NCBI GenBank assembly: GCA_964291625.2 | Contig: OZ220089.1 | Span: 2,592,001-2,656,000 of the forward strand | Source of the DNA: Candidatus Latescibacterota bacterium | GTDB lineage: Bacteria > Latescibacterota > UBA2968 > UBA8231 | DNA length: 64,000 nucleotides | Direction of reading: 5' to 3' | The notes under the pieces: model-generated | The model's database searches: none | The model's input: only the letters and a program-made list of their open reading frames with translations | Told to the model about the DNA's origin: nothing | Program-made: the position numbers and the translations under genes | Part shown: positions 41,915-51,580 of the stretch, one piece after another | Position numbering within the stretch: the stretch's first letter is position 1 | Layout of the letters: every line of letters starts with the position of its first letter

Positions 41915-42367
41915 ATGCTCACAGCGTGGATCGTCGCGGGCGCGATCATGATCCTGCTGGAGTTGTTCCTGCCCGGAATGGTGCTCGGCTTTCTCGGGTC
42001 GAGCGCCCTGATCGTGGCCGCCCTCATCTGGCTGGGCTGGATCGACAGCCTGATCTCGGCCCTCACCACCTGGTTCATCCTCTCCCTCGTCCTGCTCCTG
42101 AGTCTGCGCGGCCTGTTCCTCCGCTTCGTCGGGGGCAGGTCCGAGCGCCAGTCCACCGACGAGGAGGAGGATGCCTACGGCACGGTCGTGGACGTGGTGG
42201 AGAGGATCTCACCGGACCGGGCGGGACGGATCCACTACCGGGACGCCACCTGGCAGGCGATCTGCCATGATCGCACCATCGAGGCCGGAGAGAAGGCGAT
42301 CCTCGCCTATCGCGAGAACCTCGCGTGGGTCGTCGAGCCCGCCGGGCTGGAGGAAAGCGATCCTTGA
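41915..42367 (+). CDS. NfeD family membrane protein
   Basis: N-terminal TM helices plus an OB-fold ('GRIHYRDATWQA'); immediately upstream of the SPFH genes. Confidence 0.85.
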   Translation: MLTAWIVAGAIMILLELFLPGMVLGFLGSSALIVAALIWLGWIDSLISALTTWFILSLVLLLSLRGLFLRFVGGRSERQSTDEEEDAYGTVVDVVERISPDRAGRIHYRDATWQAICHDRTIEAGEKAILAYRENLAWVVEPAGLEESDP

Positions 42368-42384
42368 AACGGGAGAGTTGAGCC

Positions 42385-43317
42385 ATGCCGCTTCTGACCT
42401 ACTTCACGATCCTGGTGCTGATCGCCCTGTTCGTGGTGCTCAAGACGTTCGTCGTCGTGCCCATGCGCGAGGCGGTCATCGTCGAGCGCCTGGGCAAGTT
42501 CCGGGCGGTCCTGCCGCCGGGGTTCCACTTCCTCATCCCCTTCTGCGACCGCATCGCCTACCGCCACGAGACCCGCGAGCAGGTGATCGACGTCCCCAGC
42601 CAGGCCTGCATCACCCGCGACAACATCCAGGTCGAGGTCGACGGTCTGGTCTACCTGCAGGTGCTCGACCCCGAGCGGGCCAGCTACGGCATCGAGGACT
42701 ACCGCCGCGCCAGCGTCAACCTGGCGCAGACGACGATGCGGGCCGAGATCGGCAAGCTGACCCTGGGCCAGTGCTTCTACGAGCGAGAGTCCCTGAACGA
42801 GACGATCGTGCAGGAGATCGACAAGGCGTCGAACCCCTGGGGCATCAAGGTGCTGCGCTACGAGCTGCGGAACATCACGCCCTCGGCCAACGTGGTGAAC
42901 ACCCTGGAGAAGCAGATGGAGGCGGAGCGCGAGAAGCGCGCCGAGATCACCCGCGCCGCCGCCGAGAAGGAGTCCACCATCAACCTCTCCGAGGGCGAGC
43001 GCCAGGAGGAGATCAACATCTCGGAGGGCGAGAAGCAGCGCCGGATCAACGTCGCCAAGGGCCGGGCGGAGGCGATCTCCATCATCGCCGAGGCCACCGC
43101 CGAGGGCACCGAGCGGATCGCCGCCGCGGTCCAGAAGGAAGGGGGGTCGGCGGCGCTGAAGATGCAGCTGGTGGAGGAGTACATCGAGATGATCAGCGAG
43201 ATCGCGGGAAAGTCCAACGTCTCCGTCGTGCCCCTGGAGCTGGCCCGGATCAAGGGCTTCTTCGAGGGGCTGGGCGAGGTCTCCGGTGGCACGCCGACCC
43301 AGAAGAAGGGAGCCTGA
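42385..43317 (+). CDS. SPFH/Band 7 (stomatin/paraslipin) protein
   Basis: 'VERLGKF', 'CITRDNIQVEVDG', 'LAQTTMR' and 'QMEAEREKRA'. Confidence 0.92.
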   Translation: MPLLTYFTILVLIALFVVLKTFVVVPMREAVIVERLGKFRAVLPPGFHFLIPFCDRIAYRHETREQVIDVPSQACITRDNIQVEVDGLVYLQVLDPERASYGIEDYRRASVNLAQTTMRAEIGKLTLGQCFYERESLNETIVQEIDKASNPWGIKVLRYELRNITPSANVVNTLEKQMEAEREKRAEITRAAAEKESTINLSEGERQEEINISEGEKQRRINVAKGRAEAISIIAEATAEGTERIAAAVQKEGGSAALKMQLVEEYIEMISEIAGKSNVSVVPLELARIKGFFEGLGEVSGGTPTQKKGA

Positions 43318-43318
43318 C

Positions 43319-44248
43319 ATGTCGACCGTCTTCGAGATCTTCAACTTCACCGTCTGGGGCGTTCTGCTCCTGGTCCTGATCGTCATGTTCCTGCGCTCGA
43401 TCCGGCTGGTGCCGACCCAGTCGGCGTACGTCGTCGAGCGGCTCGGCCAGTACTCCAGGACGCTGAATCCCGGTTTTCACGCCCTGGTGCCCTTCATCGA
43501 AAGGGTGGCCTTCATCCGCGACCTCAAGGAGGAGACCGTGGACGTGCCGCCCCAGGAGTGCTTCACCCGGGACGAGGTCCAGGTCGAGGTGGACGGCGTC
43601 CTCTACATCTCGGTCACCGACCCGGTGAAGGCCAGCTACGGGGTGACCAACTACTCCTTCGCCGCCATGCAACTGGCGCAGACGACGACCCGCTCCGTCA
43701 TCGGCACCCTCGAGCTCGACCGCACCTTCGAGGAGCGCGACCTGATCTCGGCCAAGGTCGTGGAGGTGCTGGAGAGGTCGGGGGAGACCTGGGGGATCCG
43801 CGTCCACCGCTACGAGATCAAGAACCTGTCGCCGCCGCCGACGGTGAAGGACGCCATGGAGAAGCAGGTCACCGCCGAGCGCGACCGCCGCGCCATCGTG
43901 GCCCAGTCGGAGGGCGACAAGCAGAGCCGCATCAACACCTCGGAGGGCCGGCGCCTGGAGCTGATCAACCGCTCGGAGGGCGAGATGCAGCGCACCATCA
44001 ACGAGGCCCAGGGCCAGGCCGAGGAGGTCCGGGCCATCGCCCACGCGACGGCCGAGTCGATCGAGAAGATCGCGGCCTCGATCAGCGTCGCCGGCGGCGC
44101 CCAGTCGGTGCACCTGCAGCTGGCGGAGCGCTACCTGAAGAGGCTGCGTGCTCTGGCCGACGGCAAGACGGACGTGCTCCTGCCCGTGGACCTGGCCAAC
44201 CCTCAGCAGCTGCTGGACGCCATCGAGTTGCGCGGGCCTGACGGATAG
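43319..44248 (+). CDS. Second SPFH/Band 7 (paraslipin) protein
   Basis: 'VVERLGQY', 'CFTRDEVQVEVDG', 'LAQTTTR' and 'QVTAERDRRA'. Confidence 0.92.
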   Translation: MSTVFEIFNFTVWGVLLLVLIVMFLRSIRLVPTQSAYVVERLGQYSRTLNPGFHALVPFIERVAFIRDLKEETVDVPPQECFTRDEVQVEVDGVLYISVTDPVKASYGVTNYSFAAMQLAQTTTRSVIGTLELDRTFEERDLISAKVVEVLERSGETWGIRVHRYEIKNLSPPPTVKDAMEKQVTAERDRRAIVAQSEGDKQSRINTSEGRRLELINRSEGEMQRTINEAQGQAEEVRAIAHATAESIEKIAASISVAGGAQSVHLQLAERYLKRLRALADGKTDVLLPVDLANPQQLLDAIELRGPDG

Positions 44249-44340: not shown

Positions 44341-47300
44341 TCACTGGTCGGAGAGTCCGACCAGCAGCCGCGAGTACTCGTCCTCCAGCGGATCGACCTC
44401 GCCCCGGAGGGCCGCCCGCGCGAAGACGATGCCCGGCCGCTCGACACGGCGGGCCCGGGCCAGCACGCCGAAACCCTCCGTCCCGGAGCCCCGCTGGCCC
44501 TCGCCGAGGGACTCGAACTCCGACAGGACGCGGAACAGGCCGCGCCGGGCGCCGACCACCCTGGCCAGCACCTCGGGCGCGGTGAGCCCCTCCCGCCAGG
44601 AGCGGCGGACCCCGAGGAGCCGGCCCTCGATGTCACGCACGAGTCCGCCCGGCCCCACCAGGGTCGTGAGCTGATGGACCGTGGCCCGGGCGCCGCTGTG
44701 ACACAGCAGGGCGGCGGCGCCAAGGTCGTCGTCGTCGTAGTCGCGGAAGCCGGCGATAGTCGCCAGGGCCTCCTCGGCGCAGGCCTGCCACTGCGGCGCG
44801 TCGTCCCCTTCCGGAAGGGCGGGCAGGTCGAGGGTGTGGCCGATGAAGGGGCCGATGGAGGCGCCTTCCCCGCGGGCGGCTTCGAACCCCAGCCGCATCA
44901 GTTCCGCGGCCACGCCCAGGGCCGCCCGCTCCCCCTCGGCGGCCAGCACCTCCCGCAGCAGCCTCGAGGCCGCCGCCCGCGTGAGGAGTCCGCCCTCGAG
45001 TTCCGGTTCCCGCCCCGCGGCCTCCGCGATCCTCTTCCGGCCCGCCGCCGAGCGGCCGAGGCAGGCGAGCCCGAAGAGGGCGTCCATGCCCGGCAGCAGG
45101 TCCTCCAGGAGATCGGGATCCCGGGCCAGGTGGGCGGCGATGGACAGCCGCTCGCGGGTCTCGCCCTGGGCCATCTCCGTGAGGGGGAGGAAGACGGCCG
45201 CCTGGTCGCCGTCGAAGTCGACGTCCAGCAGGCCGCAGGCCAGGGGGCAGAGGCGGATGGCATGGCCCGGGACCGGCAGGGGCCGGAAGGCCAGCATCGC
45301 CGTGGGGCTGACGGATGGAGCGTGATTGAGGATGATCCAGTGGGCCTCCATGGTGGCGGCGAGGGCGGCCCCGGCCTCGGAGAAGCGCCTGCTGACCGCT
45401 TCGGGATCCCCCAACTCGCGCGCCGCCAGCGGCCCGAAGAGGCTCCAGGCCATCTCCTCCGGCAGACCGATCCGGTCGGCCGCCAGGTCGCTTCCGGGGA
45501 CGATTACGGCGCGGCCGCTGAAGAGCACATTCTCATCCCGCCCCGGCTCCGGGGCCGGCGCCAGTCCGTCGTACAGGGCCGACACGGCGGCGGCCAGGTC
45601 GTCCCGGGCCGCGGCTGCCAGGGGCTCGGGAGCCTTATCCTTCAGCAGCCGCGCGAGCCGGGCGTTGGCGGCGGCGACCCCGGGATACCCGGCGGCCTCC
45701 TCCGCGTTGCAGACCTCGGACAGGGTCTCCCCCGGCAGCCACGGGTGGGGGACGCCGGCGGCCAGGGACAGCGTCGGCCCCGGGTGTGGTTCCAGCCGGA
45801 AGGCGACGCCCCCGGCGCCGGCTTCGGCGCGGATTCCGGCCTGCGCCAGCCCAGCCGCCAGGGCGGCGAAGGCGGGTGAGGGGGTGGTCGCCGGCTCGAC
45901 CGGTCCGGCGGCGGCCCTGCCGGCCAGGGAACCCGCGTCGCCGCGCCGGGTGGAGCAGGTGTTGGTCAGCTCCCGGATCACCGCGGGTGCGCCGGCCTCG
46001 GCCAAGGCCCGCACCTCCATCACCCCCAGGCGCTGGCCCCTGTCGTCCGGGTGGACGGCGGCCCTCAGCTTCGGGCGCGCGCGGTGCAGCGTGCAGCCCC
46101 AGTAGACCCATCCGGCCGTGGCCGGCCGCCGCAGGGGCGTGCCGCCGAGGGTCAGCCTGGTCATGCCGTCGGCGCGCAGGCCGCTGCCCCGAAGCAGGTC
46201 CCGCAGCTGCTCGTCCGAGGGCGCCTCGAAGGGCGGCACCACGGCGGGCTCCCCCCGCAGGAGGGCCGCGTGGCCGAGGGCGGCCTCCCGGACCAGCCCC
46301 ATGACCCAGCGGGACGGGATGCCCGAGAAGCTGAAGACCAGCTCCACGGGGGTGCCGTCCGGCAGCCGCGGCATCTCCTCGTCGGGCGCCACCCGCGACA
46401 CGACGCCCTTGACCCCGTGCCGGTTGCTGAGCTTGTCGCCGGCTTCGAGGGGGTCCGGGCAGGCGAGCTTGCGGGCGCCGGACCGGCTGACCAGCAAGGC
46501 GTCGTCGAAAGCGTCGCCGTCCCAGGAGACCAGGGCCGTGAGGAGGTTCCGGCCGCACCAGAAGTCCGGCGCCGTCGGCTCGAGGCCGGTCCGCACCAGG
46601 GCCGGCTCCCTCTCGGCGGGCGCCAGCCACTGGCGCATCATGTTGGCGCCCATGAGCACGCGGTTGCCGTCGTCGTTCTCGAGGAAGGGGACGCAGGCGC
46701 CGGAGATGCCCAGTCCCTCCGCGGGCTGCGCGTCGACGATCACCAGCCGGCGGCCTCGGATCTCCGCTCCCCGGGAAATCGTCAGGACGCGGCCGATGTT
46801 CGGTCCTTCCGGGGTCTCGAAGGGGCAGGTGCGGCCGAAGTGGGCCGGGGTGAACACCTCCTGGCGGCCGGGGACCAGGAGCCGGCGCAGGTGCGCGGCC
46901 CGGGACAGCCAGTTGGTGTCGTCGAGCCGCTCGCCGCAGGAGGCCAGGAAGGCCTGGAACCAGTCCCCCAGAGGCGCCAGGGTCCGCAGGAGGGACCCGT
47001 CGAGGGGGGTGTGCTCGGGGACCTGGCCCAGGCGGGCCTCGATGAAGGTGGAGAGCCGGTCGCCGAGACAGCCGATGCGCGCCTCGGCCAGGTCGTCGCG
47101 GTCGGCCACGGGAGGCACGACCAGCTCGACGCCGCCCGAGGGGTCGCGCTCCCCCCCGGGGATCGTCCTCGGAGGCGGCAGGCTGGGACTGGCCTCCGCC
47201 ACCCGGAAGACGCCCTCTTCGTCCGGCGCGGGCAGCCCGTCGTATTCGACCTCGAAGTCCCCCTCGACCGAGGGTCCGCCGAGGACGATCCGGCAGGCGT

Positions 47301-47427
47301 GCTCGCCGGCCCCTTCGGCGCGGTAGCTGCTCACCCCCAGCCGTGCGGCCAGCAGCTCGGGAAGGCGGCGGTGCAGGAAGTCGTCGAAGGAGGCCTTGTG
47401 CCACGGGTTGGCCGGCGTCGTTCTCAT
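44341..47427 (-). CDS. Miniature single-chain RNA polymerase-like protein (fused, truncated RpoB+RpoC; 1028 aa)
   Basis: RpoB motifs appear in order: HFGRTCPFETPEGPNIG, PFLENDDGNRVLMGANMMRQ, WDGDAFDDALLVS, GDKLSNRHGVKGVVS, GIPSR, GQRLGVMEV. RpoC motifs follow in order: clamp helices, FSGRAVIVPG, LNHAP, DVDFDGDQ, SGARA, REGL..GARRGL. Confidence 0.9.
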   Translation of the reverse strand: MRTTPANPWHKASFDDFLHRRLPELLAARLGVSSYRAEGAGEHACRIVLGGPSVEGDFEVEYDGLPAPDEEGVFRVAEASPSLPPPRTIPGGERDPSGGVELVVPPVADRDDLAEARIGCLGDRLSTFIEARLGQVPEHTPLDGSLLRTLAPLGDWFQAFLASCGERLDDTNWLSRAAHLRRLLVPGRQEVFTPAHFGRTCPFETPEGPNIGRVLTISRGAEIRGRRLVIVDAQPAEGLGISGACVPFLENDDGNRVLMGANMMRQWLAPAEREPALVRTGLEPTAPDFWCGRNLLTALVSWDGDAFDDALLVSRSGARKLACPDPLEAGDKLSNRHGVKGVVSRVAPDEEMPRLPDGTPVELVFSFSGIPSRWVMGLVREAALGHAALLRGEPAVVPPFEAPSDEQLRDLLRGSGLRADGMTRLTLGGTPLRRPATAGWVYWGCTLHRARPKLRAAVHPDDRGQRLGVMEVRALAEAGAPAVIRELTNTCSTRRGDAGSLAGRAAAGPVEPATTPSPAFAALAAGLAQAGIRAEAGAGGVAFRLEPHPGPTLSLAAGVPHPWLPGETLSEVCNAEEAAGYPGVAAANARLARLLKDKAPEPLAAAARDDLAAAVSALYDGLAPAPEPGRDENVLFSGRAVIVPGSDLAADRIGLPEEMAWSLFGPLAARELGDPEAVSRRFSEAGAALAATMEAHWIILNHAPSVSPTAMLAFRPLPVPGHAIRLCPLACGLLDVDFDGDQAAVFLPLTEMAQGETRERLSIAAHLARDPDLLEDLLPGMDALFGLACLGRSAAGRKRIAEAAGREPELEGGLLTRAAASRLLREVLAAEGERAALGVAAELMRLGFEAARGEGASIGPFIGHTLDLPALPEGDDAPQWQACAEEALATIAGFRDYDDDDLGAAALLCHSGARATVHQLTTLVGPGGLVRDIEGRLLGVRRSWREGLTAPEVLARVVGARRGLFRVLSEFESLGEGQRGSGTEGFGVLARARRVERPGIVFARAALRGEVDPLEDEYSRLLVGLSDQ

Positions 47428-47428
47428 G

Positions 47429-48034
47429 TCAGTCTTCCTCCCAGTCGATCCCCAGCTCGCGCCAGGATCGAGCGATCTGTTTGCGGGCGTGGTGGATCCG
47501 GGACTTCACCGTGCCCTCGGGTATGCCCAGCTCCAAAGCGGCCTGGCGAGTGTTCATGTTGCCGTCGTAGATCAGCCGGATGACCTTGCGCCGGTCCTCC
47601 GGCAGGCGCGTCACCAGGCCGCGCAGCAGCCGCCGGCGCTCCGCCAGGGCCAGGACCTCGTCGGGCGGAAGGGTGGAGGCGTCGATCATCCATTCCGGCA
47701 CCCGCTCCTCCCTCCCCTCCTCTCCCTCCATGGCGGGGGGAGGCTGCAGCGGCTGCTCGTGACGGCGCCGGACCGAGCGGATGTGGTTGAGGGCCAGGTT
47801 CGTGGCGATGCGCAGCAGCCAGGCGAGCAGGGGGCCCTCGCCCTTCCACTGTCCGGCGCGGTGCCACAGACGGAGGAAGACCTCCTGACCGACGTCGGCG
47901 GCGTCCTCGTCATGGCGATGGATGCGCCGCAGGTGACGCTGCACATCGGCGCGGTAGCGCTCGAAGAGCTTGGCGAAGTCCTCCTGCCGCCCCTCGATCA
48001 CCCCGCGGACCAGCTCCTCGTCGCTCTTCCCCAT
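47429..48034 (-). CDS. ECF (group 4) RNA polymerase sigma factor
   Basis: Region 2 'DAADVGQEVFLRLW..WLLRIATNLALN' and region 4 'LPEDRRKVIRL..AALELGIPEGTVKSRIHHAR'. Confidence 0.93.
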   Translation of the reverse strand: MGKSDEELVRGVIEGRQEDFAKLFERYRADVQRHLRRIHRHDEDAADVGQEVFLRLWHRAGQWKGEGPLLAWLLRIATNLALNHIRSVRRRHEQPLQPPPAMEGEEGREERVPEWMIDASTLPPDEVLALAERRRLLRGLVTRLPEDRRKVIRLIYDGNMNTRQAALELGIPEGTVKSRIHHARKQIARSWRELGIDWEED

Positions 48035-48048
48035 CCGGCCTCCACCCG

Positions 48049-48077
48049 GTTGACACCGCCGGCGCCTGCCGGGTTCA
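48049..48077 (-). promoter_or_regulatory. Putative ECF-sigma (autoregulatory) promoter
   Basis: The minus strand reads TGAACCC-N16-GTCAAC, then GGAGG, then the sigma ATG 14 nt after the -10 element. Confidence 0.6.
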
Positions 48078-49421
48078 CCGGGCCGGGGGAGCCGGTTCCG
48101 CGATGCAGTAGAGGTGGTGTCGTCCCCGCAGATAGAGCTCGCCGCCGGCCAGGGCCGCCGAGGCGCTGAAGCTGTCGTCGAGGTGGTTGACGGCCAGGAC
48201 GGCGGGGGCGTCCGCGTGGCTGACGACCACGGTGGCGCCGTTGCGGCCGGTGACGTAGACGCGGCCGGCGGCGGCGACGGGAGAGGCGAAGACCCGGTCG
48301 AGGCCCTTCAACCGCATCGGCCCCGGCCGGTCCCCCCCGGTCCGGGCGTCGACGCGGGTGAGGATGTTCTGGAAGTGGCGGACGAAGTAGAGGGCGTCGC
48401 CGTAGAGCAGGAGGGAGGGGACGTACGGCGCCCCCCGGGTGCGGCTCCAGGCGGCCCGGCGGCTGCGGCTGTCCTCGCCCTCGGAGGGTTGGAGGGGAAT
48501 CGCCAGCACCGCCTGCCGGTCGTAGCTGCTCCCCGCGAAGACGAGGCCGAAGCCGGCCACCGGCGTGGCGACCACGTTCTCCACCGAGAGCCCCGGACAC
48601 TCCCAGATCCTGCGGCCGTCGGCGAGGTCGTAGCCGCGCACTCCCCCGGAGCCGCTGACCACGACCTGGGGCCGGCCGCCGGCCTCGGTGACGATGGGGG
48701 TGGTCCAGGACGAGGCCGGTGCGCGGGGGCTCTTCCAGCGGAGGGCGCCCGTCCCCTTGTCGAAGGCGGCGAGGAAGGACTCCCCCTCGTGGTCCCAATT
48801 GACGATCAGAGCCCCGCCGGCGACCGCCGGCGAGCTGCCTTCGCCGTGGCCGTGGAGCGGCTCCAGGGGGCCGAGGTCCAACTCCCACAGCAGCTCCCCA
48901 TCGAGATCGAGGCCGTAGATCCCGTGGGAGCCGAAGGAGGCGACCAGGTGCTCGCCGTCGGTCACCGCCGAGGCGGAGGCCAGGCTCGCCGTGTAGTGGC
49001 CGCCGGCGCGGGGCAGGGCCTCGCGCACCACCCGCTGCCAGAGGACCTGTCCCGTGCGGCGGTCCAGGGCGAGGACGACGAACCGGTGGCGGTGAGTGAC
49101 CGGCCGTTCGTCGTGGCTGCCCGGCAGGCCGCTGAGCTTCGGACGCAGAGGTTCGCCGTAGGGGACGGCGGCGGTGATGAAGATCCGGTCGCCCCAGACC
49201 ACCGGCGTCGAGTGGCCGCCGCCGGGAAGCGCCGCCTTCCAGCGCAGGTTGCGGGTCTCGCTCCACTCGAGCGGTGGATCGGCGTGGGGTGCGGCGCCGG
49301 TGCCCAGGGGGCCGCGCCAGGCGGGCCAGAAGCGGTCCCCATCGGTCTCCGGCTCGCCGGAGGCCGCGGTCAGCAGGCAGCAGACCACCGCGAGGGCCGC
49401 GGATGGGCCCATGCGGACCAT
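48075..49421 (-). CDS. PQQ-like / BamB-like beta-propeller secreted protein
   Basis: Signal peptide; 'WPAWRGP', 'GHSTPVVWGDRIF', 'SWTTP' and 'FASPV'. Confidence 0.87.
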   Translation of the reverse strand: MVRMGPSAALAVVCCLLTAASGEPETDGDRFWPAWRGPLGTGAAPHADPPLEWSETRNLRWKAALPGGGHSTPVVWGDRIFITAAVPYGEPLRPKLSGLPGSHDERPVTHRHRFVVLALDRRTGQVLWQRVVREALPRAGGHYTASLASASAVTDGEHLVASFGSHGIYGLDLDGELLWELDLGPLEPLHGHGEGSSPAVAGGALIVNWDHEGESFLAAFDKGTGALRWKSPRAPASSWTTPIVTEAGGRPQVVVSGSGGVRGYDLADGRRIWECPGLSVENVVATPVAGFGLVFAGSSYDRQAVLAIPLQPSEGEDSRSRRAAWSRTRGAPYVPSLLLYGDALYFVRHFQNILTRVDARTGGDRPGPMRLKGLDRVFASPVAAAGRVYVTGRNGATVVVSHADAPAVLAVNHLDDSFSASAALAGGELYLRGRHHLYCIAEPAPPAR

Positions 49422-49423
49422 TC

Positions 49424-51520
49424 TCAGACCACGGGGGGCGGGTCCGCTCTCCGTGCGGGCTCGGGATCGGCCAGGCGCAACAGGTCCCGCCGGGCGGAGG
49501 ACTGCGCCACCCGCACCCGCAGGACCTGGCCGGGCGCGGCCTGCAGCCGCTGCCCCCGGGGGGCGGGGACGTGGCACGCCACCGGGCCCTCGGGCAGCAG
49601 GACCAGGTGGCCGGGCCCGCGCGGCTCGGCGACCACGCACTGCAGCCGCGCCTTGTCCCCAAGGCTTTCGAGCCATTTGAGCGTCCAGTAGCGGCGGCTG
49701 CAGCGGCGCACGCGCTCCGCCGTCTCCCGGGCCTCGCGCGTCTCCAGCAGGATGCGCTCCAGGTCCTCTGCCGTCAGGGGGTCGGAGCGCCGGCCCGCGA
49801 TCCACAGCAGCTGCCGCTGCATGGCCAGGTCGACGTAGCTCGACAGGGGGCCGGCGCCCGGAGCGCAGGCCGGAAGTCCGAGACCCGCGTGGGGGGCGGG
49901 GGACGTCCCGAGCCTCTCGCGCGGGGTCCCGCTCTCGTGCAGATGGGTGCGGAGGACCTCGGCCGACGTGGAGTCGGCGGCGAGGGGGACGCCGGACTCG
50001 GCGGGCGGGGCCTCGCGCACCGCGTGGATCGCGGGCGCCGCGTCGCGGCAGAGGCGGGCGATCGCTTCGGCGGCCAGCAGGCCCAGCTCCGAGTCGACGC
50101 GATCCTCAACCCCCTCCGCCGCCGGCTCCGCCCGTCCTTGACGGACCGCGATCCGGTCGGCGGGATGCAGTTGCTGCCAGGCCCCCGCCCGCCGCCGCCT
50201 CTGCCGCCGCCCCTCGGCCAGCGCCGCCAGGCGGCGCACCGGGGCGCTGCCCTCGCCGGCCGCGAGCGCCGCACGGGGCCGGGCGCGGCCCAGGGACAGC
50301 CGCACCTTCTGCGGCGCCAGCTCCCGGTCCAGGCGCACGCTCAGGATCAGGACGGGTCGGGCCTCGTCCGCCGTCAGCCGGCAGGCGTCGGTCAGATCCG
50401 GCGGCAGCATCGGGATCTCCCGCTCCAGCAGGCGCACGCTGAGTCCCCGGGCGGCGGCTTCCTGATCGATGGCGCCGCCGTCCTCCACCCACAGGGCCGG
50501 CACGGCCATGTGGATGTCGACGACGGTGTGGCCGAGCAGGCTCCGGCGGAGACGGTAGGCCCGCTGGCCGCAGCGGGTGACGCAGAGGCCCGCGCCCCAG
50601 CGTCGGCGGCCTGCCCACCCAGCGAGGACGGCCGAGGGGTCGAGGCCGCGCGCCGCTCTCTTCGCCGCCTCGGAGAATGCCACGGGCAGGCCGAGGCGGT
50701 GCAGCTCCAGGTTCTCGTCGGCGGACCAGTGACCCAGGCGGACGAGGACGTCGAAGGCGGCGTGGCTTCCGTGCAGGTTGGCAGCCTTCATCAGCCGGGC
50801 GGCCTCCGCGCTCGCCTCGCCCAGGGCGGCGGCCTCGAGCAGGTCCACCGCCGAGTCCGCCCCGACGGGACGGGGGCTGGATGGGTGCCCGTCGGCGACC
50901 CTTCGGACCCACGAGGCCAGCTCGGTCTGGCGGCCTTCCTCCCTCTCCTCGCGGGCCGAGGATGCCTCGATCCCCTCTACCGCCGCCGGGGAGCGGGGGC
51001 GCCAGCGGGCGCCGTGGCGCTCGAACCGGTGGCCGCGCCACAGGGCCCGGAGCATGCCGGCCCGGCGGCTGGCGTTCGGATCGCCGGGGTCGTGGAGCTC
51101 GACCAGATCGTCGAGCCGCCACTCGCCGCCCTCCGGGCCCCCCTCGAGAGCGACCTGCCAGAGGGCCGTGAGATCGACGGCGCCGCGGGCCTGCTCGCGC
51201 CTCCGGTCGATGCGGCGGAGGTCGGCCAGCGCCATCTCGGGGGTGTGCATCGACACGTACTCCGGGGATACGTCCACCACCTTGTCGCGGCGGAGGTGGA
51301 GCCGGCGGCCGTCGACGCCGACGACGTCGTAGCCCCTGCGGTTCTGCGGATCCCGGGCGAGGTAGCCGCACTGAAGCTGGCCGCCGCGGCGGAACTCGAG
51401 CACCGCGCCGGCGCGCTCGAGAGCGGGCTTCGCGCCGCGTTCGGCCTGCACCAGGCGCGCCACCTCCCGGCGGGAGGCGTCGTCGAGGGAGTTGGTCAGA
51501 TGTCGCGGCCAGCGGACCAT
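49424..51520 (-). CDS. RNB-domain (RNase II/R-like) protein with a degenerate active site
   Basis: 'IDQEAAARGLSV.L.EREIPMLP', 'HAGLGL....GPLSSYVDLAMQRQL', 'RRYW.LKWL' and a C-terminal S1-like region. The acidic catalytic DxxxxxDxDD motif is not visible. The start is the ATG at 51520, or the GTG at 51544. Confidence 0.72.
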   Translation of the reverse strand: MVRWPRHLTNSLDDASRREVARLVQAERGAKPALERAGAVLEFRRGGQLQCGYLARDPQNRRGYDVVGVDGRRLHLRRDKVVDVSPEYVSMHTPEMALADLRRIDRRREQARGAVDLTALWQVALEGGPEGGEWRLDDLVELHDPGDPNASRRAGMLRALWRGHRFERHGARWRPRSPAAVEGIEASSAREEREEGRQTELASWVRRVADGHPSSPRPVGADSAVDLLEAAALGEASAEAARLMKAANLHGSHAAFDVLVRLGHWSADENLELHRLGLPVAFSEAAKRAARGLDPSAVLAGWAGRRRWGAGLCVTRCGQRAYRLRRSLLGHTVVDIHMAVPALWVEDGGAIDQEAAARGLSVRLLEREIPMLPPDLTDACRLTADEARPVLILSVRLDRELAPQKVRLSLGRARPRAALAAGEGSAPVRRLAALAEGRRQRRRRAGAWQQLHPADRIAVRQGRAEPAAEGVEDRVDSELGLLAAEAIARLCRDAAPAIHAVREAPPAESGVPLAADSTSAEVLRTHLHESGTPRERLGTSPAPHAGLGLPACAPGAGPLSSYVDLAMQRQLLWIAGRRSDPLTAEDLERILLETREARETAERVRRCSRRYWTLKWLESLGDKARLQCVVAEPRGPGHLVLLPEGPVACHVPAPRGQRLQAAPGQVLRVRVAQSSARRDLLRLADPEPARRADPPPVV

Positions 51521-51528
51521 GGTCCCTG

Positions 51529-51580
51529 AGGGTATCCTCTCCACTTCGACAGTGTCAACCGCAATCCGAGGGCCTATAAT
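51529..51580. promoter_or_regulatory. Overlapping divergent sigma70-like promoters
   Basis: The plus strand has GTGTCA-N17-TATAAT (51552-51580) before the 51595 gene. The minus strand has TTGACA-N18-TACCCT (51558-51529), 8 nt before the RNB ATG. Confidence 0.45.

Follow-up and report, generated by a model that had tools for sequence, protein, structure and literature searches.

The 64,000-nucleotide stretch of DNA analysed here (the window) comes from a Candidatus Latescibacterota bacterium, contig OZ220089.1, positions 2,592,001 to 2,656,000 of the forward strand, and carries a gene for an RNA polymerase (RNAP)-like protein in which a beta part and a beta' part are fused into one chain, hereafter the mini-RNAP. 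This protein is an extra, fused and strongly reduced beta::beta' paralog and not the housekeeping enzyme, and its gene belongs to a conserved module formed by a promoter of the extracytoplasmic function (ECF) type, an ECF sigma factor and the mini-RNAP itself. On balance we favour the view that the module encodes an active, sigma-directed, trigger-loop-less single-chain minimal RNA polymerase with relaxed sugar discrimination. An earlier reading of the same letters made without database searches (the sequence-only reading) dealt with the active site of the mini-RNAP; the dedicated sigma and its promoter, which it left unremarked, bear most on function. The elements of the module, all on the minus strand, are:

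44341..47427, minus strand: coding sequence of the mini-RNAP (P0001), 1028 amino acids, single-chain beta::beta', stop codon included, taken from the list of open reading frames (ORFs) and its translation.
47429..48034, minus strand: ECF-type sigma-70 family factor, 201 amino acids, with Pfam Sigma70_r2 at 23-90 and r4_2 at 135-187.
48052..48077 (C1:2640052-2640077), minus strand: promoter-like motif of the ECF type, TGAACC-N14-GGTGTC, lying upstream of sigma.

Three Pfam domains are above cut-off in the mini-RNAP: RNA_pol_Rpb2_3 at residues 168-222, Rpb2_6 at 327-443 and Rpb1_2 at 695-759. The equivalog models of the housekeeping subunits match it in pieces and far below their cut-offs—154.7 bits against 801 for TIGR02013 (rpoB) and 99.1 against 963.5 for TIGR02386 (rpoC)—and separate, ordinary beta and beta' genes are found on the second contig of the genome (C2), in open frames of 1272 and 1389 residues. 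It is on these two grounds that we call the window protein an extra paralog. The host subunits share with it 32-36% identity across the cores aligned by BLASTP, and it belongs to the two-barrel RNAP superfamily by its Rpb2_6 and Rpb1_2 domains, by DFDGD at 737-741, which supplies the D-x-D-x-D of one barrel, and GDKLSNRHGVKG at 330-341, the conserved Lys/Arg motif of the other, and by structural matches to RNAP chains. The parts of the protein on which the argument leans are the following; features read from the AlphaFold2 (AF2) model are marked as such:

46405..46440, minus strand: beta-side barrel basic motif GDKLSNRHGVKG (residues 330-341), with NRHGVKG at 335-341, aligning to GDKMAGRHGNKG of the host beta.
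45562..45687, minus strand: clamp coiled-coil (residues 581-622), AF2 helices 581-596 and 601-622; BLASTP sets 581-621 on host beta' 290-330.
45322..45324, minus strand: codon CAC of H702, at the position of beta' R425 in NRAP; motif NHAP, residues 701-704, window 45316-45327.
45223..45225, minus strand: codon GAC of D735, at the position of beta' N458 in NADFDGD; motif DVDFDGD, residues 735-741, window 45205-45225.
45205..45219, minus strand: catalytic DFDGD (residues 737-741), with D737, D739 and D741.
44503..44580, minus strand: shortened bridge helix (residues 950-975), an AF2 helix containing GARRGL at 959-964 (window 44536-44553).
44344..44502, minus strand: post-bridge tail (residues 976-1028), in AF2 a loop and three short helices in the place of the trigger loop, the jaw and the following domains.

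The AF2 model, computed with 44 homologs, has a pLDDT (predicted local distance difference test) of 90.4 and a pTM (predicted template modelling score) of 0.87. Its top Foldseek matches are RNAP beta and beta' chains (E ~1e-22 to 1e-20), and VIA aligns its residues 1-540 with Z of 25-29 across 420-520 residues of beta/Rpb2. The protein retains the fork, its segments of the PFLEHDD type and of the FED type (the latter reading FDD here), the basic motif of the beta side, the clamp coiled-coil, the catalytic loop, the bridge helix together with the F-loop, and a short C-terminal piece; the basic motif GDKLSNRHGVKG is conserved among the 69 family representatives described below. By contrast, BLASTP places residue 320 at host beta 784 and residue 327 already at 1038, about 250 residues being absent with the deleted beta flap, which lies between the FED segment and the barrel; and the beta' portion begins at the clamp coiled-coil, so that the N-terminal clamp parts are gone. 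In bacterial holoenzymes this coiled-coil is the usual docking site of sigma region 2.

The sequence-only reading had pointed to NHAP instead of NRAP (H702), to DVDFDGD instead of NADFDGD (D735), to a spacing of 33 residues between the two and to GARRGL in the bridge helix; all of this stands, both in the translation and against the host beta'. In the latter the R of NRAP is at 446 and the N of NADFDGD at 479, again 33 apart, and in the BLASTP alignment H702 faces the Arg of LLNRAPTLH and D735 the Asn of FNADFDGD, so that both the Arg and the Asn of rpoC are replaced. Each codon is a single transition away from the canonical one, CAC from CGC (Arg) and GAC from AAC (Asn). The two changes are no slip of the assembly, since they recur in the orthologs of genomes G107 and G132 (86% identity), in six further protein clusters and in an RNA-library contig (X1 record 2, 45152-45421), which spans both codons without change and whose sole differences from the window are at 45345, 45383 and 45391.

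The absence of a trigger loop was likewise borne out. In the host beta', which has the trigger-loop IGEPGTQLTLRTFH, about 535 residues separate GARKG from the C-terminal motif; the corresponding interval in the mini-RNAP, whose residues 899-964 align to host beta' 713-787 and to rpoC2 profiles, is about 41. The bridge helix of rpoC is thus present but shorter than that of the host; it had been described as the first half of the helix, which holds for the truncation but not for its extent, as the helix runs 11 residues beyond GARRGL and is shortened rather than halved. The 64 residues that remain after GARRGL hold no trigger-loop motif and form in the AF2 model a low-confidence loop and short helices at 988-994, 998-1008 and 1017-1023, without a helical hairpin; nor was a cryptic trigger loop seen elsewhere in the chain in the AF2 secondary structure. 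A weak BLAST alignment joins residues 1001-1024 to host beta' 1318-1341 (E 1.6). Among the homologs the trigger-loop motif occurs in 0 of 185, and in all 185 the GARxGL column is followed by 63-87 residues up to the C-terminus: the loss of the trigger loop is a trait of the whole family.

The sigma factor scores 92.9 bits with TIGR02937 (cut-off 42.9) and has regions 2 and 4 only, which makes it an ECF-type factor, and its stop codon lies 1 nucleotide before the ATG of the mini-RNAP. This pairing is conserved. In 17 contexts of ~17 kb a sigma gene stands upstream on the same strand in 16, no other gene being conserved outside the clade of the query, and of 37 upstream stretches 30 yielded a sigma gene. 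Seven did not, and in five of these a 597-residue ORF resembling an ATP-binding cassette (ABC) protein occupies the fetched 1.9 kb, and in locus L123 the sigma gene is just beyond such an ORF. This insertion, judged ABC transporter-like by eye, lies on the same strand between sigma and mini-RNAP (L123 5331-7124 in G074; also L133-L136 and L138, all of one genus). In a second phylum (that of Chloroflexia) the sigma gene is directly upstream in both loci found.

The promoter is conserved too: 28 of 29 loci have GAAC[CT]-N13-17-G[GC][CGT]GTC upstream of sigma, in most cases 42-49 nucleotides before the start, and so has one of the two second-phylum loci. It looks like an autoregulated ECF promoter travelling with the sigma/mini-RNAP pair. 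In the window the TGA of the -35-like TGAACC (48075-48077) is apparently also the stop codon of a 576-residue PQQ/BamB-like beta-propeller ORF (48075-49805, minus strand). Five further sites of the right spacing were found in the genome, only one of them intergenic and upstream of another sigma-70 family gene: TGAACC-N14-GGCGTC at G000:C1:3581898-3581923(-), i.e. L152 1199-1224, between the gene of an ArfB-like GGQ protein and the sigma-70 family gene (a 321-residue ORF). The same arrangement of stop codon and motif is seen there, and this second site could be a target of the ECF sigma or a chance match. As for expression, RNA-library contigs of one study (X1, X2) overlap portions of both the sigma and the mini-RNAP genes, and one of 1070 nucleotides covers 47123-48100 across their junction; these contigs are a hint of expression, and prove neither transcription nor a single transcript.

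How widespread is the family? A word-indexed search gave at least 120 proteins of ~1000-1090 residues with the same three Pfam domains, labelled at their sources as "hypothetical protein" or not at all—one Joint Genome Institute entry merely lists the three Pfam domains. The organisms named among these matches are Gemmatimonadota, Hydrogenedentes, Armatimonadetes and Chloroflexota, the closest homologs bearing Gemmatimonadota source names. The exhaustive profile search returned ~75 near-full-length (>900 residues) representatives at 50% identity, followed by fragments and ordinary fused rpoBC, and in the ESM Atlas two clusters, one of 73 and one of 135 members, have the size of the mini-RNAP. 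Other clusters of this atlas are single-chain Rpb2_6+Rpb1_2 proteins of 1221-1787 residues, with no taxa recorded, which may be other kinds of fused reduced RNAPs. Of 151 sampled genomes in the phylum of the window, 53 carry the gene (E <= 1e-60), among them 3 of the 8 from its own genus, whereas in the second phylum it was found in 2 of 301, a frequency that is a lower bound as two candidates were scored per genome. Within the genus, the copy of G118 (C165, L091) is only 46% identical to the query and those of two other genomes are 86% identical; two further genomes (G063 and G133) show two separate matching places each. The divergent copy and the double matches suggest transfer or several lineages of the module.

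Links to defence systems or mobile elements were looked for and rejected. In collections of phages (50,697 records) and plasmids (72,556 records) no relative covering at least 80% of the query was found, the matches being ordinary rpoB/rpoC where annotated; PHROGs returned only full-size beta- and beta'-like families, and PADLOC, run on the polymerase, the sigma and two neighbours, gave 0 matches. A generic-pattern search for related loci in genome contigs met only ordinary rpoB-rpoC loci and was unusable for context. In the literature searched, including the available portions of PMC2919709 and of the ECF classification paper PMC7826278, no bacterial fused mini-RNAP with an ECF sigma was met, supplements (e.g. 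ECF group tables) and subscription-only papers being outside the scope; the sigma-coupled fused mini-RNAP family is thus apparently undescribed.

The state of the catalytic apparatus can be judged across the family. Of the 185 homologs, 183, 183 and 182 retain D737, D739 and D741 of DFDGD, respectively, and the beta basic motif and the bridge helix are conserved across proteins merely 40-50% identical. At the 162 columns conserved at 85% or more the query departs from the family majority six times, against a family median of 11, and its number of departures is the 8th lowest among the 69 representatives. The ratio of nonsynonymous to synonymous substitution rates (dN/dS) of the mini-RNAP is 0.29 and 0.36 against the G107 and G132 orthologs, within the range of the neighbouring genes (0.11-0.45); the gene is under purifying selection. 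A general decay of the gene was considered and rejected from the few departures at conserved columns and from this dN/dS. The pseudo-enzyme that the sequence-only reading had envisaged as an alternative is disfavoured by the same numbers, together with the conservation of D-x-D-x-D.

The two sugar-contact positions behave quite differently from the catalytic aspartates. The residues found at the position of beta' R425 (702) and of beta' N458 (735) are distributed as follows:

44 sequences: at 702, R 38, H 5, T 1; at 735, N 27, D 10, Q 5, E 2.
69 full-length representatives of 50% clusters: at 702, R 57, H 3, K 3, G 2, S 2, C 1, A 1; at 735, N 40, D 19, E 4, Q 3, G 2, S 1.
185 full-length sequences: at 702, R 163, H 12; at 735, N 111, D 44, Q 17, E 7.

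Both positions are canonical in 36 of the 69 representatives. In the clade of the query (ten clusters, >80% identity) D735 is present in all ten and H702 in eight, the two others, P0006 and P0009, having R; in a FastTree phylogeny these two nest within the H-bearing group, so that R and H have been exchanged at least twice in this clade alone. Parsimony on the midpoint-rooted tree of the 185 sequences counts 13 changes between R and non-R and 34 between N and non-N. Positions 702 and 735 are therefore far more changeable here than in cellular enzymes, where both contacts are described as strictly or universally conserved (PMC7862312, PMC7708050). An acidic residue at 735 (D or E) accompanies H702 in 11 of the 12 H-bearing sequences, from ~4-5 lineages, which hints at a coupling of the two; it is a weak one, because the base rate of D or E is 51/185 and the sequences are related. 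Around the catalytic loop (window 45210-45240, residues 730-736) the H702-bearing sequences also tend to have G732 and V736 (ACGLLDVDFDGD) where their R-bearing sisters have P or R at 732 and A at 736, i.e. three changes near this loop within one shallow clade.

The sequence-only reading had itself allowed that the two changes would be lineage-specific drift if homologs mostly retained R and N, and this is largely what we see: R is retained in 163/185 (57/69) and, less strictly, N in 111/185 (40/69). Since in addition R and H alternate within a clade of >80% identity, the H702/D735 double change reads as recent, lineage-specific and local rather than as a design feature of the enzyme, and for this reason the pair taken alone is of modest weight. 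What might it do? In the E. coli enzyme beta'R425 is the main determinant against 2'-deoxynucleoside triphosphates (2'-dNTPs), and R425K cuts selectivity 17-fold at binding and 25-fold at incorporation; N458S costs ~4-fold, and the trigger-loop change Q929M 30-fold at binding (PMC7862312). The relaxed sugar specificity proposed before is a reasonable expectation from these mutants. By analogy, enzymes of the H702/D735 lineage probably discriminate poorly between ribo- and deoxyribonucleotides, as both the Arg and the trigger-loop Gln are missing, while D735 may partly compensate as a hydrogen-bond acceptor.

If these observations are assembled into the minimal polymerase that we favour, the beta-derived and beta'-derived barrels would make, in a single chain of 1028 residues, a catalytically competent enzyme, which would have kept the metal-binding DFDGD, the basic motif of beta, a bridge helix of reduced length and the coiled-coil of the clamp, and shed the beta flap, the N-terminal clamp parts of beta', the trigger loop and the jaw. 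The conserved ECF-type promoter would drive the sigma/mini-RNAP pair; the sigma would dock on the retained coiled-coil and direct DNA-templated RNA synthesis by the mini enzyme from promoters of the TGAACC-N14-GGTGTC type, at least from its own. Combined with the loss of the trigger-loop Gln, H702 and D735 would lower the discrimination against 2'-dNTPs rather than abolish polymerisation.

We infer the binding of the sigma to the mini-RNAP mainly from the gene pairing. The complex predicted for the sigma with residues 1-799 of the mini-RNAP scored 0.42, the best of three controls 0.00, with at least 53% contact agreement between runs and a partner pLDDT of at least 64. The mark used is reached by 58 of 80 solved complexes and by 2 of 110 mismatched pairs, counts that hold roughly here as custom alignments were used for both chains; among those that reach it, scores of 0.60 or less come from just 7 of the 80 solved complexes and from both passing mismatches. 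Sigma-RNAP complexes having already been solved, such a pass may moreover reflect likeness.

Several points weigh against an active, sigma-directed enzyme. This complex prediction lends weak support and gives no interface; the beta flap, the usual holder of sigma region 4, is deleted, which makes the canonical holoenzyme geometry impossible. Two loci (L125 and L148) have no sigma in the upstream DNA retrieved, and the sigma ortholog of G107 (93% identical, same genus; L114 6393-7004) is interrupted in frame by a stop at codon 103, within the linker, which may be an error of draft sequencing or the sign of a pseudogene. The promoter pattern searched genome-wide is near chance (17 sites against 8.4 expected, and 84 against 63), and no regulon beyond the operon could be defined. 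Lastly, a dN/dS of ~0.3 is not strong constraint, and a few members of the family, e.g. P0160 and P0191, are without DFDGD.

Some of these points would be explained if the sigma served the host core enzyme instead, as it could. ECF sigmas normally use the host core and autoregulate their own promoters, and an ECF-type promoter is precisely what is found at the operon. The sigma would then merely switch the operon on, and the mini enzyme would be a regulated effector with a non-transcriptional role—making primers, short oligonucleotides or RNA-templated products—which is close to what the sequence-only reading had suggested. The missing anchor of sigma region 4, the weak complex prediction and the lack of a definable regulon all fit with this, and other two-barrel enzymes such as QDE-1 use RNA templates (PMC9508822). 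Against it speaks the tightness of the sigma-polymerase pairing, conserved over two phyla and with a gap of 1 nucleotide here, and also the fact that the coiled-coil, as docking site of sigma region 2, survives although over half of beta and beta' is gone. Moreover ECF sigmas are usually paired with regulators, not with arbitrary effectors, and we hold this alternative for a real but minor possibility. The usual partner in ECF operons is an anti-sigma factor, and the mini-RNAP gene stands at its usual place; with the kept docking helices, the changed ribose contacts and the rare relatives without DFDGD (P0160, P0191), one could imagine an idle protein that binds nucleotides or sigma, for example a decoy sequestering the sigma like an anti-sigma factor. 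We find this quite improbable: two intact barrels would be superfluous in a decoy, DFDGD is present in 182-183 of 185 homologs, the basic motif and bridge helix are conserved at 40-50% identity, and the query has a mere 6 departures in 162 conserved columns.

Two other readings bear on what the enzyme would make. The H702/D735 lineage might have switched or broadened to 2'-dNTPs, as a synthase of DNA or mixed polymers echoing the archaeal DNA polymerase PolD, in which a GLAPHT loop replaces the RxPxLH loop of multi-subunit RNAPs (msRNAPs) and H931, as the steric gate, excludes ribonucleotides (PMC7708050). The loss of R425 raises the incorporation of deoxynucleotides by the E. coli enzyme (PMC7862312), and the joint occurrence of H702 and D/E735 (11 of 12, ~4-5 lineages) goes in the same direction; with a base rate of 51/185 and related sequences, though, this association is weak. 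When the loops are aligned on their shared Pro, the His appears to fall here at the position of the Arg and not at that of the PolD His, and PolD H931A still cannot make RNA chains, so further determinants are needed (PMC7708050). As the His replaces the Arg itself and alternates with it among near-identical proteins (P0006 and P0009, >80% identical to their H-bearing relatives, keep R), a depth too small for the polymer to have changed, it is unlikely that the enzyme has truly gone over to making DNA, and this reading as a whole is very improbable indeed. A broader proposal joins promoter, sigma and mini-RNAP into a self-contained, transferable transcription unit working beside the cell RNAP in several phyla, where the loss of the trigger loop would have freed the ribose contacts (13 and 34 changes) and some lineages, including the query, would have acquired relaxed or altered sugar selectivity and possibly mixed or deoxy products; we regard it as tentative and rather doubtful.

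The other genes around the module are of local interest. At 41915-44248, on the plus strand and convergent to the mini-RNAP, an NfeD-like gene is followed by two SPFH/Band-7 genes, an arrangement conserved only in G107 and G132. Upstream of the PQQ gene (49424-51544, minus strand) lies a gene for a 706-residue RNB-domain (RNase II-like) protein with a double helix-turn-helix domain; it overlaps the long form of the PQQ ORF, and one of the two starts is probably over-called.

Cellular RNAPs are treated as invariant five-subunit machines, and the mini-RNAP is a chromosomal, sigma-coupled enzyme of about one third that size, present in roughly a third of the sampled genomes of the window's phylum and sporadic elsewhere. 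It would offer a natural minimal model of which RNAP and sigma parts are needed for promoter-directed synthesis, and could serve as a compact orthogonal transcription part. Close relatives told apart only by R or H at the key position also make it a natural experiment in how the sugar is selected when the trigger loop is missing.

With subunits beta and beta' from bacterial msRNAPs, including those of the host, the mini-RNAP shares two double-psi barrels, DFDGD, the GDK..RHG.KG motif, the fork, the PFLEHDD-type segments, the coiled-coil and the bridge helix. It differs from them in being one chain of 1028 residues, in having no beta flap, no N-terminal clamp or zinc parts of beta', no trigger loop and no jaw, and in its changed equivalents of R425 and N458. 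The rpoB-rpoC fusions described by PRK14844 and PRK09603 (profiles of ~2840-2890 positions) have the same order, beta then beta', and match with E of 1e-43 and 4e-40. They are complete housekeeping enzymes, whereas the mini-RNAP reaches 148.7 and 136.4 bits where the cut-offs are 4632 and 5372, has about one third of their length and coexists with separate canonical genes. Orf6 of the yeast killer plasmid pGKl2, an Rpb2::Rpb1 fusion of 982 residues, resembles it by its description in subunit order, in size and in the deletion of about half of each parent; it belongs to a eukaryotic cytoplasmic plasmid, and no sigma is described for it in the portion available (PMC2919709).

YonO of the Bacillus prophage SPbeta (~100 kDa) is, like the mini-RNAP, a single-chain two-barrel RNAP without a trigger loop, reported as highly processive, as efficient as msRNAPs and strongly preferring ribonucleoside triphosphates (PMC5467207). 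To lack a trigger loop does not, then, imply slowness, because YonO without one is fast and processive, and the slow or non-processive synthesis that the sequence-only reading had envisaged is unwarranted. YonO is phage-encoded, with a trace of similarity to msRNAPs (PMC5467207), when the mini-RNAP family is plainly beta/beta'-like, chromosomal and sigma-coupled. The DP2 subunit of archaeal PolD, finally, likewise has a core of two barrels; its RxPxLH loop lacks the Arg, and a His located there faces the sugar (PMC7708050). But PolD makes DNA, its PHT motif is invariant and it differs in many other respects, whereas in the NHAPSV of the mini-RNAP there is no PHT, and the His that replaces the Arg is polymorphic among close relatives.

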